Shown in pieces: positions 35,516 through 60,194 of a DNA stretch of 64,000 nucleotides (positions are counted from its first letter, which is position 1; every line of letters begins with the position of its first letter). The DNA is taken from IMG/VR virus record IMGVR_UViG_3300010346_001238; one strand, written 5' to 3'. This DNA comes from an uncultured virus (IMG/VR IMGVR_UViG_3300010346_001238) (lineage: Duplodnaviria > Heunggongvirae > Uroviricota > Caudoviricetes). Below the pieces are notes generated by a model. It saw nothing but the letters and a program-made list of their open reading frames with translations. It was not told the origin of the DNA and did not search any database. Both the position numbers and the translations under genes were made by a program.

Positions 35516-35922
35516 GGGCCTGACATGGATTCGATCTAAGGGAGGAGATATTTGATGCATGTAGAGGAAGATTGCTTGGCCTCTTAAAAAATGTAATCAA
35601 AAAAACAACTGCCAACCGATTAAACGAATTGGCCTCGGTGGATTTCTCTATGCCGCTTGTCGGCGTGGAGGAAACTGCTGGTGTTGAGCTAGCTTTAGCA
35701 TAACACCAAACACCCAAAGATTCTCGCTATGAGGGTGTTGAGCTAGCAGCGAGAAAACTGCTGGTGGTTAAAATTATCAGCGTGAAGGAATGGTCACTAT
35801 ATCATTCTATATCGTTTAGTTTGCTTATTATCGAACACGATGAAATCAAAAATAAGATAAACATGTAGATTCAGATTTTGATTCTTTTAGAGACCCGGGT
35901 TCGATTCCCGGCAGGTCCACCA
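35516..35922 (+). ncRNA. ssrA: tmRNA
   Basis: GGGCCTG/CAGGTCC-A-CCA acceptor with G3:U; GGATTCGA; T-arm; tag ORF 35611-35703 ending ELALA*. Confidence 0.95.
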
Positions 35923-44096: not shown

Positions 44097-44170
44097 GGCT
44101 GTTTAGTATAATAGTAGTACGTTGGTTTCATAAGCCGAAAGCACTGGGGCGGAACCAGTAACAGCTACCA
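44097..44170 (+). tRNA. tRNA-Met(CAT), atypical T-loop
   Basis: Cloverleaf, TTCATAA loop, CCA. Confidence 0.8.
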
Positions 44171-45576: not shown

Positions 45577-46857
45577 ATGAATAATGACATAGCAGTTATA
45601 TCGACATTTTTCAATCCTCTAAAATATAAAAATCGTTATGAAAATTACTTAAAATTTCAGGATTTTATATATGAATGTGGATTAAAAGATCATTTTTATG
45701 TATCGGAAGTATTATATAAAAATGATGAACCATTTATCAATCATAAAAATATATTAAGATTTAAAACTGAAGATATTTTATGGCATAAAGAACGAGCGTT
45801 AAATTTAACTGTAAAAACTCTTCCAAAACAATATACTAAAGTTGTCTGGGTTGACACTGATATAATTTGGTCCAATATAAATTGGTGGAAAGAAGTTAGT
45901 AAATTATTAGAAGAATATAATATAATTCAACCATTTGCTTATTGTAAATTTTTAAATTCCCATTTTAATTTGGATCACACTCAAATGTCCATATTTCATA
46001 GATTATTCCGAATAAATAATGGATTGCCAACGTTTCATGCTATTCATTATGGTGGAACAATGGCTTATAATAGAAAATATTTTGAATGCGTTGAACTTTA
46101 TGATAAAGATATAATTGGAGGAGGGGATTTTATATCAAATATATCGATATTAAAAATGCCTATAGATGAAAATGTTCAAGCGTTTGATCCTGAATTAGAT
46201 TCATATATTGAAAAATCGGGTAAATATTTAGAAAACAAATATCATTATTTAGATGATTCAGTTTATCATCTTTATCATGGTCAGCTTCATGATCGTCAAT
46301 ATATAAAGAGATATTCTATTCTTAAAAATTATATTTTTAATGATATGTGTGAAAAGGATGATAATGGGTTATATAAGTTTAAGTCAACTGTTTCACAAAA
46401 AATAAAATCACAATTTTTAGATTATTTTAAAACTAAAAATGAGGATTTAATACAATTTATTGTTTCTTTAAGTAAGTCATATAATATTGAAAGAAGTTCA
46501 AATGGAAATTTCAAATGGATTTCGGCTGAAAATATATATGAATTATATAATTTAAAAAGTATTAAATTAAAAGTTAGTCGAATGGGGAATTCTAATACCT
46601 CTCCATATTTAAATGTTATATGTAATGGAAACTTTAAACATTATTCGCTAGATTTAAATAAAGATACTGAAATCATTATTCCTGTTTCTGATAAAAAAGA
46701 AGTATCTAAACTTATTCTTTTAGGAAAAGGATTTGTACCTGCCGAAATAGATTTAAACAGTCGGGATTTTCGCCAATTATCTTATGCAATTAAAAAAGTA
46801 GAAATTTTACAACAAAATAAAACAGAATATGAAAATTATTTATTAGAAAATTTTTAA
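45577..46857 (+). CDS. GT-A-fold glycosyltransferase-like, paralog 1
   Basis: WHKERALN, WVDTD, GGGD, HLYHG. Confidence 0.8.
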   Translation: MNNDIAVISTFFNPLKYKNRYENYLKFQDFIYECGLKDHFYVSEVLYKNDEPFINHKNILRFKTEDILWHKERALNLTVKTLPKQYTKVVWVDTDIIWSNINWWKEVSKLLEEYNIIQPFAYCKFLNSHFNLDHTQMSIFHRLFRINNGLPTFHAIHYGGTMAYNRKYFECVELYDKDIIGGGDFISNISILKMPIDENVQAFDPELDSYIEKSGKYLENKYHYLDDSVYHLYHGQLHDRQYIKRYSILKNYIFNDMCEKDDNGLYKFKSTVSQKIKSQFLDYFKTKNEDLIQFIVSLSKSYNIERSSNGNFKWISAENIYELYNLKSIKLKVSRMGNSNTSPYLNVICNGNFKHYSLDLNKDTEIIIPVSDKKEVSKLILLGKGFVPAEIDLNSRDFRQLSYAIKKVEILQQNKTEYENYLLENF

Positions 46858-46861
46858 TATT

Positions 46862-48133
46862 ATGAATAATGACATAGCAGTTATATCGACATTTTTCAAT
46901 CCTTTAAAATATAAAAATCGTTATGAAAATTACTTAAAATTTCAGAATTTTATATATGACTGCGGATTAAAAGATCATTTTTATGTATCGGAATTATTGT
47001 ATAATAATGAAGAACCGTTTATTAATCATGAAAATGTAATCAGATTTAAAATGGAAGATATATTTTGGCATAAAGAACGAGCTTTAAATTTAACTGCAAA
47101 AATACTTCCAAAACAATATTCCAAAGTTATCTGGGTTGATGCCGATATGATTTGGTTCAATAAGAATTGGTGGAAAGAAGTAAGTAAATTATTGGATGAA
47201 TATAATGTAGTTCAACCATATTCAAGCTGTCAATATTTACGATCTAATTTTAGTACTGAAAGAAAAACTAATTCGGTATTATTTTATATATGTCAAAATA
47301 ATTTTAATGAAAAGGGATTGGTAGGTGGAGCGATGGCCTATAAACGGGAATTTTTTGACACGATTGGATTATATGATCGGGCAATAATGGGTGGCGGAGA
47401 TATAGTATCTATTATGCCCATATTAAAAACTACTATTCCAACAAAATATGCATATTTTGATTTAAAATTGAATGAATATTTAGAAAAAGCAACTCAGTAT
47501 ATAAATAACCGATATTATTACTTAGATGAATTAATTTGTCATTTATATCATGGACGAATATTTGATCGGGGGTATAAAGATCGATATAAAATGAATGAAA
47601 ATTTAACATTTGATGATTTATGTGAAGTTGGAGAAAGCGGATTGTATAAATTTAAATCAAATGTTACAAAGATTGTAAAATTTAATTATATTAAATATTT
47701 TGAAGATAGGAATGAAGATTGGGAGCAACTAATTTATCCATTAAATAAAAGATATATGATTGAAAAAAATATAGATGGATCATTATATAAATGGTATGCC
47801 CCAACAAGTGTATTTGAATTGAAGAATATAAAAAGTATTAAACTACAAATTGATAGACGAGGAAATCCATATACTTCTCCATATTTAAATGTCATAGTTA
47901 ATGAAAAATTTAAGCAATTTGCATTAAATTTAGAAAATATTACCGAAATCATTATTCCTATATCTGAAGTGGAGCAAACATCTAAACTTGTTTTATTAGG
48001 AAGAGAATTTATACCTTCACGTACCTCTTTAAATAGTAATGATAATCGTTATTTATCTTATATAATTAATAAATGTTGGATATTGCCAAATGGAAAAATA
48101 AATTATGAAGAATACCCAATAGAAAATTTTTAA
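46862..48133 (+). CDS. GT-A-fold glycosyltransferase-like, paralog 2
   Basis: WVDAD, GGGD, HLYHG. Confidence 0.8.
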   Translation: MNNDIAVISTFFNPLKYKNRYENYLKFQNFIYDCGLKDHFYVSELLYNNEEPFINHENVIRFKMEDIFWHKERALNLTAKILPKQYSKVIWVDADMIWFNKNWWKEVSKLLDEYNVVQPYSSCQYLRSNFSTERKTNSVLFYICQNNFNEKGLVGGAMAYKREFFDTIGLYDRAIMGGGDIVSIMPILKTTIPTKYAYFDLKLNEYLEKATQYINNRYYYLDELICHLYHGRIFDRGYKDRYKMNENLTFDDLCEVGESGLYKFKSNVTKIVKFNYIKYFEDRNEDWEQLIYPLNKRYMIEKNIDGSLYKWYAPTSVFELKNIKSIKLQIDRRGNPYTSPYLNVIVNEKFKQFALNLENITEIIIPISEVEQTSKLVLLGREFIPSRTSLNSNDNRYLSYIINKCWILPNGKINYEEYPIENF

Positions 48134-48135
48134 AT

Positions 48136-49419
48136 ATGAATAATGACATAGCAGTTATATCAACATTTTTTAATCCTCTAAAATATAAAAATCGATATGA
48201 AACTTATTTAAGATTTCAAGACTTTATATATGACTGCGGATTAAAAGATCATTTCTATATTTCTGAATTGTTATATGATGAAGAAGAGCCATTTATTAAA
48301 CATGAAAATGTAATTAGATTTAAAGTTAAAGATATATTTTGGCATAAAGAACGGGCTTTAAATTTAACTGCAAAAATACTTCCAAAACAATATTCTAAAA
48401 TTATCTGGGTTGATGCAGACGTAATTTGGTTCAGTAAGAATTGGTGGAAAAAAGTAAGTAAATTGTTGGATGAATATAATATAATTCAACCATATTCTCA
48501 TTGTCAAAATTTAAATAAAAATTTTAGTTTAGATAGAAAATATAAATCACAAATTTATAGTGTAATATTTTATAATAAAAATACATCAAAACAAATGGAA
48601 TATGGTGCCCCGGGTGGTTCTATGGCTTATAAGCGGGAGTTTTTTGAAAATATAGGTCTTTATGATAGATGTATAGTTGGCGGGGGAGATTATAAATCAA
48701 TTTATTCTATATTTGGTTTGGAATTACCAATGCGAGATAAATCATTTGATTTTAAAATAAATGAATATGCGAATATTATCAAAAAATATATTGGAAATAA
48801 ATATTATTATTTAGATGAAATAATGTATCATTTATATCATGGAAGAAAATTTGAACGACAATATTCAAAAAGGTATCAATTAATTAAAAATTTTAATTTT
48901 TATGATTTATGTGAAGAAGATGAAAATGGGTTATATAAATTTAAATCTACAGTTACAAATGAATTGAAATTGAAATTTATTAATTATTTTAAAAATCGCA
49001 ACGAAGACTGGGAACCATTAATAATTCCATTGTATAAACCGTACTTGGTAGAGCACAGTAAAAATAATATATTTAAATGGATGCCTCCCGAATGTGAATA
49101 TGAATTACATAATATAAAAAGTATTAAATTACAAATTTGTCGAATGGGAAATGCTCTCACTACTCCATATTTGAATGTTATATCTAATGGAAAGTTTAAA
49201 CAATATTTATTGAATTTAGATAAAGATACAGAAATTGTTATTCCTATTTCTGAAAAAAAAGGAATATTCAAACTTATTCTTATAGGAAAGGGATTTATAC
49301 CAGAAAAAGTTTTTATTAATAATTCGGATGTAAGAAAATTATCTTATGTAATTAACAATGTTAAAATTTTACAACATGATAAAGAAGAATTTGAAGATTA
49401 TCCGGTAGATGCAATGTAA
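48136..49419 (+). CDS. GT-A-fold glycosyltransferase-like, paralog 3
   Basis: WVDAD, GGGD, HLYHG. Confidence 0.8.
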   Translation: MNNDIAVISTFFNPLKYKNRYETYLRFQDFIYDCGLKDHFYISELLYDEEEPFIKHENVIRFKVKDIFWHKERALNLTAKILPKQYSKIIWVDADVIWFSKNWWKKVSKLLDEYNIIQPYSHCQNLNKNFSLDRKYKSQIYSVIFYNKNTSKQMEYGAPGGSMAYKREFFENIGLYDRCIVGGGDYKSIYSIFGLELPMRDKSFDFKINEYANIIKKYIGNKYYYLDEIMYHLYHGRKFERQYSKRYQLIKNFNFYDLCEEDENGLYKFKSTVTNELKLKFINYFKNRNEDWEPLIIPLYKPYLVEHSKNNIFKWMPPECEYELHNIKSIKLQICRMGNALTTPYLNVISNGKFKQYLLNLDKDTEIVIPISEKKGIFKLILIGKGFIPEKVFINNSDVRKLSYVINNVKILQHDKEEFEDYPVDAM

Positions 49420-49439
49420 GAGTTGAAATATTAAAATGG

Positions 49440-49607
49440 GAGTTGACATTTGTGAAAAGTCTGATATAATGAGAGGCGAAAATTGAAATGCCAAAGAAAA
49501 ATTGAAAAAAAAAAATCGAAAAAGAGTTGACATTGATTAAAAGTCTGGTATAATGGTTGGCGAAAATTGAAATACCAAAGAAAATTGGTAAAAAACAAAA
49601 ATTGAAC
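49440..49607 (+). promoter_or_regulatory. two tandem ~85-bp promoter units
   Basis: gagttgacatt..aaaagtctg.tataatg..gcgaaaattgaaat.ccaaagaaa twice. Confidence 0.8.
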
Positions 49608-49624
49608 ACTATTTATCTGGTAGT

Positions 49625-49729
49625 ATGAGAAATCGATTACAAAAACGGAATAGAGCCGAGGGCGATTGGACGCTCAATAGTAAGAGTGTCTCCATTTATA
49701 ATCGTCCAGAAGGGAGGCTCTCGACGTGA
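49625..49729 (+). CDS. putative 34-aa attenuator leader peptide
   Basis: MRNRLQKRNRAEGDWTLNSKSVSIYNRPEGRLST*; last codons overlap the antiterminator arm. Confidence 0.6.
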   Translation: MRNRLQKRNRAEGDWTLNSKSVSIYNRPEGRLST

Positions 49730-49753
49730 TGTAATACGATACATGCCGTCAAT

Positions 49754-49785
49754 GAGAGCCGAACCAAAAAAGGTTCGGTTTTTTT
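49754..49785 (+). terminator. intrinsic terminator with competing antiterminator
   Basis: gagagccgaacc-aaaaaa-ggttcgg-T7; the 5' arm also pairs with ggctctc 49716-49722. Confidence 0.85.
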
Positions 49786-49847
49786 GTTGACAAAAAACTG
49801 GATTTGTGGCAAAATGGATTTGTGGCAAAATTTGGATGGGTTTTAAT

Positions 49848-49979
49848 GGTGCTGAGTTTTCCCGGAAAAAGCACCCGTAGAAGAGTTCCGTGAGATCGGA
49901 TATAGCGGAGCGGCAAATATAGCTCCAACTCTGGTCAGTGCAGGGATGTGCTGGCTACCAACGAAGGTGAAAAAACTCA
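49848..49979 (+). ncRNA. unidentified structured RNA
   Basis: ggtgct/agcacc, tgagtttt/aaaactca pseudoknot, agagtt/aactct, ggagc/gctcc. Confidence 0.5.
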
Positions 49980-49991
49980 ATGGGATGTAAT

Positions 49992-50069
49992 GGAAGCGAA
50001 GCTCATAAGGATGAGCACCCGGCTTTTAACCGGGTGGCAGGTTGGGTTCGAATCCCCCCGCTTCCACCA
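49992..50069 (+). tRNA. tRNA-Lys(TTT)
   Basis: Cloverleaf, CCA. Confidence 0.88.
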
Positions 50070-50071
50070 AC

Positions 50072-50142
50072 AGGAGGTCCGCTGGGCGGTACGAGGTCTC
50101 CAAAACCTTGTTTGACAGGTTCGATTCCTGTACCTTCTGCCA
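50072..50142 (+). tRNA. tRNA-Trp(CCA), short D-arm
   Basis: CTCCAAA loop, G73-CCA. Confidence 0.85.
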
Positions 50143-50319
50143 ATTTAGATAGAAAAAATGAATTTATTTATACTATTTATTTATAAAGATTAGAATTTAA
50201 AGATTATAGTACTGCATTAAGTTTCGCTAAAAAAACAGCAGAAGAAATGTTAAAGGATGCGGATCTTGATATGTAATAAATACAACAATTTCTATTAAAT
50301 TTTAATATATTTATATGAC

Positions 50320-51627
50320 ATGAATATATACCAATTATTAAAAGAATCAAAGCAGTTGTTGAATCAATCGGTTCAATTAAATCTTGACACTACTCAATTA
50401 ATTTCGGAGGCTCTTGAATTAGAATTGCACGAGGATTTATTAGTTGTTGTTTCTAATGAAGAAGATCGAAGAAAAGCTTCTCAAGAAACTTTTCGAAATA
50501 AAAGTGCGTTATATGCGGCTGGATTCAGATGGAATTCTGGAATAAATGCTTGGGTAATTGATAAATCCGAATTTAATCGTGTAAAGCCGATTATAATGAA
50601 AATAAATCAATCGGCAAAAAATCAGCTTGCAGATAGAGCAAATGAACTTTTAGATAAAATACAAAATACATCTGATTTGCGATCACATTCTCCTGGACTT
50701 TCTCGTAAAGAAGAGTTGAGTGTAATGATTGAAAAGTTCGTTGAAGATTTAACTACTGCTATAGATGACGTTAAGGCGTCTGAAACTTTTAGAAAATATT
50801 TGGAATTTGGTCTGCGATTTCGTTCTTATAGTTGGTATAATACGATGCTTATTTGGATGCAAAGACCTAGTGCAACAAAAGTGGCTGGATTTAAACAGTG
50901 GCAAGATAAGTTTTACAGACGAGTTAAAAAAGGAGCTAAAGGAATTACTATTTTAGCACCAATGATTTCAAAGAAAAAAGAAGAACCCGACGAAGATGGA
51001 ATAGATTCGACCGATTTAGATCCCGTTAAAAAAGAAAAAGAATATAAGCAAATACGATTTATGGCGGTAACTGTATTTGACATTTCTGATACTGAACCCA
51101 TAGACGAGCGGGGAGAAGTTCCCGAAGAACCTAATTGGAAAGGAAGCAATGATCCCAATGAAAAGGCGGATGAAGTATATGAATGTGCTGCTGAATTGGC
51201 CGATAATATGGGAATTAAACTTGAAACGGGTGATGCAAAGGGTTCTGAAATGGGGTGGGCTAAAGGAGATCATATAAATATTACTAGCAATATTGCCGGA
51301 GTAAATCGTGCAGCAACACTCATTCATGAAATTGCTCATGAATTATTACATTTTAAGAAATCCTCCCCGTTTTATGTTGGTGATGTAGATGATGTACGAT
51401 TGACCAGAGAAGTTGCTGAATTACAAGCAGAAACGGTTTCTTATATTGTAATTCGATATTATGAATTGCCCGCAGAGCATCATGCGACATATTTAGCTTT
51501 TTGGAAAGGTAATAAAGATGCTATTTCTAAAAACATAACACATATTCGTAAAGCTGCGGATTTTATTATTAAAGAAATAGATAAAATTCAAGAATATCGT
51601 AAAAAGGAAGCCGGGCCAGATTTATAA
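50320..51627 (+). CDS. ArdC-like N-terminal domain plus HExxH metallopeptidase-like domain
   Basis: YSWYNTMLIWMQRP.AT.VAGFKQW..RRVKKG.KGI.ILAP, VFDISDT, HEIAHELLH, ELQAE. Confidence 0.85.
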   Translation: MNIYQLLKESKQLLNQSVQLNLDTTQLISEALELELHEDLLVVVSNEEDRRKASQETFRNKSALYAAGFRWNSGINAWVIDKSEFNRVKPIIMKINQSAKNQLADRANELLDKIQNTSDLRSHSPGLSRKEELSVMIEKFVEDLTTAIDDVKASETFRKYLEFGLRFRSYSWYNTMLIWMQRPSATKVAGFKQWQDKFYRRVKKGAKGITILAPMISKKKEEPDEDGIDSTDLDPVKKEKEYKQIRFMAVTVFDISDTEPIDERGEVPEEPNWKGSNDPNEKADEVYECAAELADNMGIKLETGDAKGSEMGWAKGDHINITSNIAGVNRAATLIHEIAHELLHFKKSSPFYVGDVDDVRLTREVAELQAETVSYIVIRYYELPAEHHATYLAFWKGNKDAISKNITHIRKAADFIIKEIDKIQEYRKKEAGPDL

Positions 51628-52980: not shown

Positions 52981-53227
52981 ATTTTAAAACGTTATAAAAA
53001 GTTATGAAAAGTAAACTTAAAATGTTGCGATGGGTAAATTTTGTCAGTAAAGTTCTATCATTATCTTTTAAAAATAAGGAAATAATGGATTTAGATTCAA
53101 GATTGGATTCAATTGAGAATCGAGGAAAAGTCCCTTATTATGATTATTAGCATCCGTGAGGGATTTAATTCCCTCACGAGTTTTTATTAAAACCTATATA
53201 TTTATTATATAAAATGATTGATTTTAT

Positions 53228-54049: not shown

Positions 54050-54113
54050 ATTTCAAAATGTTACTTGACATTTATTTAAATCTTGGTATAATGTCTAGTA
54101 AAATTAAAGTAAT

Positions 54114-54338: not shown

Positions 54339-54344
54339 ATTTTG

Positions 54345-54710
54345 TGAGGGGTAAGTTGTCTAACCCCGAACGGTGACAACAAAGCATGTGAGACATGCTG
54401 CTATGGTGGATAAAGAAATGGACATCCTAGAGGCACCACCCCGTATAGGATATGATGGGTAGTTTTGTTCCGGAAAGGGACATATTGCGCAAACCGCATT
54501 TTCTTTCCCCATCCAGAGAAATGCGGGTATTAATTTATCTCAATGAATTGTATAAGTAATAATATTGCTTTACGGGTTGAGAAGGTTATATAAACAACAC
54601 ACCACAATAACGGGTTCGAAACCGGACGATAATGTGTTGGGTGAGAGCATGGAATCTTACTTATAATCCCAATTTCCATGAATTGAGAAGCAATTGCTTA
54701 TCTCAACCCT
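54345..54710 (+). ncRNA. large multi-pseudoknot RNA, unidentified
   Basis: More than 12 complementary segment pairs; no credible + strand ORF. Confidence 0.65.
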
Positions 54711-54712
54711 TT

Positions 54713-55520: not shown

Positions 55521-55595
55521 GGCCCTATCGTCTAATAGAAGGATATATGCCTTTCAAGCATAAGATCGTGAGTGCGATACTCCGTAGGGCTGCCA
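55521..55595 (+). tRNA. tRNA-Glu(TTC)
   Basis: CTTTCAA loop, atypical T-arm, CCA. Confidence 0.8.
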
Positions 55596-59798: not shown

Positions 59799-59850
59799 AC
59801 TTGACATTTAAAACTAATGTGATATAATTTTACATGATCTTTGAAAATTA

Positions 59851-60086
59851 TTTAGGCGACTTAGACGCTGAATATGGTTAAGCCCATATTTAGAGGAAGT
59901 TCGATACTACCAAACCTAATGTGGGAGAAAATATTTCATTGACCACAGAAGTAGCAATCCTAAATGTCCGAGGGTGTCGGTTTCCCATTGACGACTGGTT
60001 GGAGCAGCAACTATTAGCACGTTGCCACAATTTTTATTGTGAGATAAATGTCTAAGATAATACAGAATATCGGCTATTTGCCTAAA
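59851..60086 (+). ncRNA. rnpB: RNase P RNA, very compact (~236 nt)
   Basis: P1 tttaggcga/ttgcctaaa; P2 cttagac/gtctaag; P3 hairpin; GAGGAAGTTCGATAC and ACAGAATATCGGCTA form P4; AGATAAATG; CCACAGAA. Confidence 0.8.
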
Positions 60087-60092
60087 GAATTT

Positions 60093-60180
60093 CGGATAGA
60101 CGCCCATAAGGTAGGTGCCGAAAGGGCTGCGTAGGTGACGCTAAAACAACAATGTCGTTTCGTTGTTCACCGTCTATCCG
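60093..60180 (+). ncRNA. unidentified small structured RNA
   Basis: 10-bp closing stem cggatagacg/cgtctatccg, GAAA tetraloop. Confidence 0.5.
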
Positions 60181-60194
60181 TCAATTTAATAGAT

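Follow-up and report, generated by a model that had tools for sequence, protein, structure and literature searches.

Introduction

How a phage sets the output of its own transfer RNA (tRNA) genes is the question raised by a short element in IMG/VR record IMGVR_UViG_3300010346_001238, which comes from an AT-rich uncultured jumbo phage; the whole stretch analysed here, 64,000 nucleotides (nt) long, is called the window. The element lies between two tandem promoters, P1 and P2, and a tRNA-Lys/tRNA-Trp unit, and it combines a short leader open reading frame (ORF) with what may be a conditional terminator. We read it as a candidate ribosome-coupled transcription attenuator and give this reading an even chance of being correct. 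Sequence and folding establish the helices, how evenly the folds are balanced, where the stop codon lies and that relatives share the layout; from these we infer a part for the ribosome.

Leader-peptide attenuators govern the amino-acid biosynthesis operons trp, his, thr, phe, leu and ilv. One example is pheL, as described in the available text of PMC3082878. Why and when phages use tRNA genes has been argued for decades, and the current ideas, in the available portions of PMC10264068 and PMC11464382, are codon compensation and escape from host defences that cleave tRNA. In those portions the word stem "attenuat" is absent from both papers, and promoter, terminator and leader are unmentioned in PMC10264068. 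Among the matches listed in literature searches, no paper dealt with attenuation of tRNA genes. What is new in the proposal is leader-peptide attenuation applied to phage tRNA genes.

Competing helices in the element

Based on the sequence and its predicted folds, the element offers three mutually exclusive helices, 1:2, 2:3 and 3:4, of which the last is an intrinsic terminator; this arrangement is characteristic of attenuators. The features are collected in Table 1. Region 2 pairs with 49747-49750 and 49754-49760 across a 3-nt bulge, and region 3, taken as 49747-49762, is approximately a direct repeat of region 1, taken as 49645-49659, so that both compete for region 2. The pairing of the ORF end with 49747-49760 had been put forward in an earlier note on this DNA, as had the terminator, which we recover as a predicted hairpin with its stem at 49759-49765/49772-49778, a loop of six A and a T run at 49779-49785. 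A consensus terminator scan did not list this hairpin, we think because that scan carries the stem on into the T run; the evidence for it comes from the folds and a separate hairpin scan.

The complementarity is stronger than base composition would give. The duplex between 49620-49746 and 49747-49765 reaches -20.4 kcal/mol. Of 2000 dinucleotide shuffles, 2 attain that value (1 of 2000 when the test was repeated), as does 1 of 373 windows matched for GC, and the duplex ranks first among the 26 terminator-like hairpins of this phage. Folding of the 236 nt that start at 49560 gives -72 kcal/mol (z = -6.4); past the A-rich leader lies a GC-rich island of about 45% GC, whose surroundings have 20-35%. 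For the full transcript, the fold with the long hairpin plus terminator and the fold with the antiterminator both come to -67.0 kcal/mol. As the transcript grows, the antiterminator and its alternative stand at -50.2 versus -45.1, -53.5 versus -45.1, -57.8 versus -55.9 and then -59.3 versus -61.1 kcal/mol; until the 3' arm of the terminator emerges the antiterminator leads by 5-8 kcal/mol, and with the terminator complete the two are less than 2 kcal/mol apart. The stop codon at 49727 follows directly on region 2 and region 3 begins 20 nt further on, a placement that would let a terminating ribosome, of assumed footprint size, cover region 2 but not region 3.

Upstream, P1 and P2 are sigma-70-type promoters inside an 84-bp tandem duplication, P1 lying in 49440-49500 and P2 in the copy at 49524-49584, which is 87% identical. 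Judging from hexamer spacing, transcription from P2 would start near 49561.

Table 1. Coordinates of the element and of the features around it in the window.
Feature	Position	Strand	Description or basis
Promoter P1	49443..49470	+	12/12 consensus, TG extension
Promoter P2	49527..49554	+	12/12 consensus, TG extension
A-rich, weakly structured 5' leader	49561..49624	+	Sequence and fold
Candidate leader ORF	49625..49729	+	34 sense codons, ATG start, TGA stop
Long irregular hairpin	49632..49740	+	Predicted default co-transcriptional fold; includes the pairing of region 1 with region 2
Region 1	49645-49657	+	Pairs with region 2 inside the long hairpin
Region 2	49716..49726	+	Last 11 nt of the ORF codons, abutting the stop; partner is region 1 or region 3
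Region 3	49747..49760	+	3' strand of the antiterminator; overlaps the first 2 bases of the terminator stem
Weak intrinsic terminator	49759..49785	+	7-bp stem, -10.6 kcal/mol, seven T
Promoter P3	49787..49831	+	Including the duplicated -10 block; 10/12, TG-extended
GC-rich unannotated RNA segment	49822..49991	+	Would be transcribed first by read-through or from P3; runs on into the tRNAs in RNA-library contigs
tRNA-Lys(UUU) and atypical tRNA-Trp(CCA)	49992..50142	+	ARAGORN, Rfam
Next terminator	53155..53178	+	Far limit of any read-through unit

Proposed mechanism

In the proposed attenuator, a ribosome at the stop codon of the leader ORF would cover region 2, leaving region 3 to close the terminator, and transcription would end near 49785. 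A ribosome that is late or stalls early would leave region 2 free and disturb the long hairpin, and the antiterminator would form. Strong transcription from P1 and P2 would then continue into the unannotated RNA, tRNA-Lys, tRNA-Trp, the ArdC-like gene and at most seven more tRNAs, while P3 would supply a basal level independent of the gate. Since the window leader has no codon bias, it would report the overall speed of translation rather than the supply of one tRNA. We modelled stalls by equilibrium folding with a 29-nt ribosome footprint. In this model, stalls at codons 1-8, 22, 24 and 25 are predicted to leave the window element in the antiterminator fold, and positions from codon 27 onwards, up to the stop, in the terminator fold.

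The same layout in jumbo-phage relatives

The copies of the element found in IMG/VR and in metagenomes were identical or 99.98% identical, a search of the phage collection with the element region returned tRNA matches only, and blastn-short found no paralogue of the element within the window. The nearest relative seen was P0002, an ArdC-like protein with 76% identity. Because no sequence homologue was found beyond copies of this phage, loci were collected around relatives of the ArdC-like gene (80 metagenomic and 55 IMG/VR loci), to which the tRNA regions of three related jumbo records were added, and terminator-like hairpins close to tRNAs were sought in all of them.

The scan yielded five further elements of this layout, in G003 (locus L015), L097, G002, L110 (in G006) and G004 (locus L152). 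Each has a promoter, a short ORF of 29-44 codons, an ORF end complementary to the 5' arm of a terminator, and then tRNA genes. The layout that the earlier note had suggested looking for near the tRNA genes of related phages thus recurs, in jumbo relatives whose elements cannot be aligned with that of the window. Synteny with the ArdC-like gene suggests common descent.

G003 repeats the order of the window exactly: an 11/12 promoter and a 44-codon ORF come first, followed by a terminator with a TTGACA promoter beside it, some 190 nt of RNA and tRNA-Lys(UUU). The end of its ORF, abutting the stop, pairs with a segment overlapping the terminator stem at -18.3 kcal/mol, reached by 3 of 2000 shuffles. 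L097 and G002, which can be aligned only with each other, have ORFs of 43-44 codons whose last codons match the 5' arm of the terminator. The complementarity in L097 is reached by 5 of 2000 shuffles; that in G002 is weak alone (489 of 2000, or 74 of 2000 with a longer arm). L110 has a 29-codon ORF, with a start resembling those of G002 and L097, and a terminator (complementarity reached by 9 of 300 shuffles). In G004, a 33-codon ORF is followed by a terminator 22 nt before a cluster of eleven tRNAs, and the complementarity is modest (49 of 2000). Relative to the stop codon, the best partner of the segment before the terminator lies at -11 to +1 in G003, -11 to -1 in L097, -10 to -1 in G002 and -16 to +5 in the window. 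Promoter-like sites were found between terminator and tRNAs neither in L097, where the cluster has eight tRNAs, nor in G004.

Control hairpins rarely share these properties. Among 55 hairpins of this phage and three relatives, significant complementarity together with a partner at the stop of a short ORF occurred in these elements only; among 200 hairpins in the remaining loci three passed, and all are members (L015, L097 and L110). Among the 255 terminator-like hairpins scanned, the layout is therefore nearly confined to these sites. L025 was considered as an element and rejected, being an ordinary 73-codon gene with a terminator before tRNA-His.

The comparison of G002 with L097 separates what is kept from what has changed. 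Invariant features are the promoter, codons 1-3, four blocks inside the ORF and 22 nt over region 2, the stop codon and the next bases, and the substitutions in the terminator stem are compensatory. In contrast, the middle of the ORF has diverged, with one 3-nt indel that leaves the frame open. Among identical residues, 3 of 21 differ in codon in the leader; the corresponding figures are 134 of 285 for the ArdC-like gene and 12 of 29 for the adjoining small ORF. With so few synonymous differences beside its neighbours, the peptide is not the conserved thing. Conservation at the nucleotide level and an open frame, without a conserved protein, are what a leader ORF embedded in RNA structure should look like.

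The stall model separates the relatives. G003 is predicted to be bistable until codon 38 and to terminate thereafter. For L097, G002, G004 and L110, the antiterminator is predicted to be the best fold only while the 3' arm of the terminator has yet to emerge. The predicted response to stalls in these four is weighed below.

Leader codons and downstream tRNAs

For all elements, leader composition was compared with the same-strand tRNAs at most 3,300 nt from the stop codon, a reach chosen to end at the next terminator of the window. Leaders enriched in codons tied to the regulated genes, a feature of attenuators, were found in L110 and G004 and not in the window. The L110 leader precedes three tRNA-Ser, tRNA-Arg(UCU) and two tRNA-Trp. 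In post hoc tests, 14 of its 28 residues belong to the Ser/Arg/Trp set, against a background of 0.11 (binomial P = 1.9e-7), with 13 cognate codons in a run; no gene window of equal length (0 of 42) reaches this value. The G004 cluster holds Pro, Gln, Lys, Gly, Tyr and Thr tRNAs, and 24 of the 32 leader residues belong to it, against a background of 0.31 (P = 4.7e-7), with 20 of 32 codons cognate. That level is reached by 1 of 210 gene windows by residue and by 0 of 210 by codon. The true pairing of leaders with clusters is the best of 120 permutations.

These observations suggest, more tentatively than for the window alone and somewhat short of an even chance, that a jumbo-phage clade gates its tRNA genes by leader-ORF attenuators that measure translation, codon-matched in G004 and G006 and unbiased in the window, G003, G002 and L097. 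In the codon-matched elements, each tRNA cluster would be switched on when exactly its tRNAs run short, giving a direct feedback loop. In the unbiased ones, termination would need a timely ribosome at the stop, so that any slowing of translation would open the gate.

Points that weigh against a ribosome-coupled attenuator

Several observations weigh against this reading, and they fall into four groups. The first concerns homology. Searches with nhmmer gave no homologue of the element in 89 loci or, later, in 156. A covariance model built from the single sequence recovered no further element in the window, in the remainder of G001 (a longer record of the same phage), in 30 related loci or in five related jumbo records, and matches to the leader peptide occurred in none of five records. 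The relatives were recognised by layout and not by homology. The sole match of the covariance model, L030, was to the terminator only and was rejected.

The second group concerns the predicted switch and the codons. In the equilibrium stall model, the terminators of L097, G002 and G004, which are stronger than that of the window, prevail at every codon, and that of L110 does so at nearly every codon, with switching at three only; switching in these elements would have to be kinetic. In the window leader, 19 of 33 residues belong to the downstream tRNA set (P = 0.23) and 11 of 33 codons are cognate, a level matched or beaten by 196 of 289 gene windows. The leaders of G003, L097 and G002 likewise show no enrichment for their downstream tRNAs. 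In addition, the composition tests of L110 and G004 were done after the pattern had been noticed.

The third group concerns the ORF itself. The 34-codon ORF of the earlier note is present, and its counts of 27 distinct codons, 17 amino acids and five of the six Arg codons are accurate. As a mark of design, however, the codon variety fails, being that of shuffled sequence: ORF shuffles give 25.9 +/- 1.8 distinct codons and 38% of them reach 27. Real 34-codon gene windows of this phage hold fewer (mean 21.7, with 3% of 231 reaching 27), so that by this measure the ORF looks non-coding. An ATG ORF is similarly placed in 391 of 5000 shuffles (7.8%). The ORF lacks a Shine-Dalgarno sequence, as do most genes of this phage, and its start codon is paired in the final predicted fold. 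The GC content at third codon positions is 0.46 against 0.27 in genes, and the codon adaptation index lies in the lowest 13% of 225 gene windows. A collection of 15 billion proteins held no ORF of this region, though a neighbouring protein is there from 21 contigs.

With ORF statistics at or near chance, a terminator that is conditional without any ribosome has to be considered. The long hairpin would then be bound by some factor, whether protein, small RNA, tRNA or ligand, that shifts the balance of the folds, and the ORF would be there by accident. Structure and fold balance, which are the best-supported facts, agree with this explanation; the hairpin has large purine-rich internal loops, and the blocks shared by G002 and L097 are conserved as nucleotides. 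Left unexplained, however, are a short ORF that ends exactly at region 2 in three unalignable lineages, an open frame that survives heavy divergence, and the leader codons of L110 and G004 that match the downstream tRNAs. Furthermore, Rfam gave no match to the element, either at gathering scores across the whole window or at E up to 10 in 49300-50400, and within 49560-49790 neither T-box nor any other family rose above noise at E up to 10. We consider an RNA-only switch quite unlikely.

The fourth group concerns P3, the promoter whose TTGACA at 49787 had been listed in the earlier note and is present. Lying at 49787-49815, it starts one base past the T run, has a 17-nt spacer and a TG-extended CAAAAT, and its -10 block is repeated 16 nt downstream. 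Since P3 stands between terminator and tRNAs, directly 3' of the former, the tRNAs are independent of read-through, whereas in an attenuator the genes depend on it. The order of terminator and then promoter is also how two separate transcription units would appear.

RNA libraries bear on P3. Each of four runs out of four gave one contig, at 49791-49974, 49829-50063, 49841-50121 and 49890-50128, in which the segment past the terminator is present and contiguous with the tRNAs. That these contigs start at or after 49791 fits an active P3. The data are assembled contigs of which none covers 49350-49790, and this missing cover, uninformative on the leader, is not taken as absence.

The element might accordingly be a stand-alone gene for a small RNA or small protein with a constitutive terminator, followed by a separate tRNA unit under P3, the alternative pairing being non-regulatory. 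This would fit the pair of consensus promoters, the terminator with another promoter immediately behind it, the GC-rich island in AT-rich DNA with its low fold energy, and the contig starts in the four RNA runs; L025, with its gene and terminator before tRNA-His, is a precedent. Against it, the complementarity, at about 1 in 1000, and the near-equal energies go unexplained. In L097 and G004, moreover, the lack of a promoter-like site before the tRNAs means that the unit there must be a leader. The near confinement of the layout among the scanned hairpins and a substitution pattern that speaks against a conserved peptide also count against such a gene. We regard it as unlikely, at about half the weight of the ribosome-coupled attenuator.

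Reach of read-through

The ribosome-coupled attenuator, if it operates, has a bounded reach. The tRNA-Lys(UUU) gene begins about 170 nt past P3 and is followed by tRNA-Trp, the ArdC-like gene (Pfam PF08401) and more tRNAs. The unit up to 53178 would hold Lys, Trp, the ArdC-like gene, His, Pro, Ile, Arg, Leu, Tyr, a 110-codon ORF and Asn; beyond it, 12/12 promoters at 54065, 59801 and 61112 restart transcription. Because of the terminator and these later promoters, the gate could reach at most the unannotated RNA, nine tRNAs, the ArdC-like gene and the 110-codon ORF, and the figure of about 29 tRNAs in the earlier note is too large.

That note had gone further and proposed that loss of almost any tRNA, for example to host anticodon nucleases, is sensed and switches on the whole array of about 29. 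The general logic is that of the ribosome-coupled attenuator, and the leader does sample 27 codons. The first downstream tRNA is Lys(UUU), and in the available text of PMC11464382 the PARIS defence system cleaves the tRNA-Lys of E. coli, from which phage T5 recovers by means of a copy that it encodes. Nevertheless, the codon variety is at chance, only about a third of the codons yield the antiterminator when stalls are modelled, the array is cut by the terminator at 53155 and the three later promoters, and P3 bypasses the gate. This full version appears very improbable.

Of the attenuator as first proposed, what has gained ground is the mutually exclusive and balanced helices, the layout in relatives and the match between leader codons and tRNAs in two of them; the codon variety, the reach over about 29 tRNAs and a codon match in the window have fallen away. 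Collectively, the attenuator idea gains real comparative support, and for the window itself it stays a candidate reading.

Relation to known regulatory systems

The element resembles leader-peptide attenuators in its short leader ORF, in its exclusive helices 1:2, 2:3 and 3:4 ending in an intrinsic terminator, in a stop codon at which a ribosome would cover region 2 and, in L110 and G004, in runs of regulatory codons. In contrast to those systems, phage tRNA genes and not biosynthetic enzymes stand behind the terminator; the window leader has no run of regulatory codons, its stop abuts region 2, and a promoter follows the terminator. A further difference is that in L110 and G004 the tRNAs under control are the ones that decode the regulatory codons, an arrangement that would make the feedback direct.

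As in T-box riboswitches, a leader RNA would report tRNA supply through a choice between terminator and antiterminator. However, T-boxes, in the portions of the literature available, bind uncharged tRNA directly and control aminoacyl-tRNA synthetase and amino-acid genes, whereas the candidate sensor here is an ORF. A terminated leader, predicted at about 225 nt from P2 and about 310 nt from P1, would be a discrete structured RNA like rnTrpL of Sinorhizobium, an attenuator-derived small RNA (PMC7968998, available text), and it could act in trans as a small RNA.

A third comparison comes from phage T4. Its tRNA gene cluster embeds small stable RNAs that are co-transcribed and processed with the tRNAs. 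The element is like them a structured non-tRNA RNA in a phage tRNA region, a description that also fits 49822-49991, 54339-54712 and 59835-60194. Unlike this element, the T4 RNAs are not known to be promoter-proximal or bounded by a terminator with a competing helix.

Further features of the phage and its tRNA region

Across a shared 22,183 nt, G001 (102 kb, completeness rating 29%) is 99.98% identical to the window. A stretch of 801 nt is complete in 14 DNA runs labelled as sludge, wastewater, digester, biogas fermenter or bioreactor sludge. The genes fit translation table 11; an alternative code with TGA as Trp was rejected, as it brought no meaningful lengthening of genes. ARAGORN finds 33 tRNA genes and a transfer-messenger RNA (tmRNA) in the window, and Rfam alone adds two tRNAs, at 44097-44167 (48.6 bits) and 55521-55592 (41.4 bits), without an ARAGORN call. 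Within the window, 25 tRNAs by ARAGORN and one by Rfam only lie 3' of the terminator, and one further tRNA lies beyond the window in G001. The tmRNA, at 35516-35922 (Rfam 125 bits), has an unusually long predicted tag of 30 residues.

The unannotated segment at 49822-49991 has no Rfam match and its fold is not significant (z = -0.9); relaxed ARAGORN gave a poor tRNA-Pro-like fold in 49800-50000, which was not accepted. A segment of similar length occupies the same place in G003, G002 and L097, the G002 and L097 copies being well conserved (nhmmer E = 6e-21). The tRNA-Trp(CCA) at 50072-50142 has a short D arm and an ARAGORN anticodon at position 29, and its best Rfam model is tRNA-Sec, at 31 bits, under the gathering score; by eye, a similar odd Trp-like sequence precedes tRNA-Asn in G002.

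The ArdC-like gene at 50320-51627 encodes an N-terminal ArdC domain and a metalloprotease-like motif. Many jumbo-phage contigs of 150-380 kb (loci L011-L147) carry such a gene inside or next to a tRNA cluster, which makes the gene a useful synteny marker for this clade. Further along, two other stretches, 54339-54712 and 59835-60194, each separate a consensus promoter from tRNA genes. Both are rich in GC and structured (z = -3.9 and -2.9), neither matches Rfam, and either may be an additional leader or small RNA. Upstream, 45577-49419 holds three tandem paralogous genes of 423-427 codons with 56-63% identity between two tRNA clusters, with no Pfam match and no IMG/VR relatives outside this phage. 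The region 1-34000 has just eight ORFs of at least 200 codons in 34 kb, together with numerous GC-rich islands and, on either strand, numerous strong hairpins of terminator type.

The leader ORFs contain a TATAAT hexamer, in frame Tyr-Asn, at 49697-49702 of the window, around 6450-6455 of L015, at 1678-1683 of L097 and at 2568-2573 of L149 on the minus strand. It is present in all four elements with a stop-abutting antiterminator, which are otherwise unalignable. It could be a sigma-dependent pause signal, an internal -10, a regulatory codon pair or an AT-rich chance occurrence. ARAGORN also reports tRNAs with a CUA anticodon, labelled Pyl, at L149 (reverse complement, 4387), L154 (reverse complement, 1578) and L110 (244-316), in G002, G004 and G006, respectively. 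Amber suppression is one possible role for them, and they may hint that those relatives recode TAG; no leader ORF discussed here ends in TAG. Exact-pattern scans for the lineage of G002 and L097 returned those two only.

Significance for phage biology

If the proposal is true, a gate that senses translation would show that the output of phage tRNA genes is regulated by need. It would constitute a compact natural sensor of tRNA sufficiency and would make the question of phage tRNA use testable by simple reporter and cell-free assays. The feedback loop proposed for G004 and G006 would be a natural answer to depletion or cleavage of host tRNAs. The recurrence of the layout in distant relatives suggests that these phages make more tRNA when translation falters.

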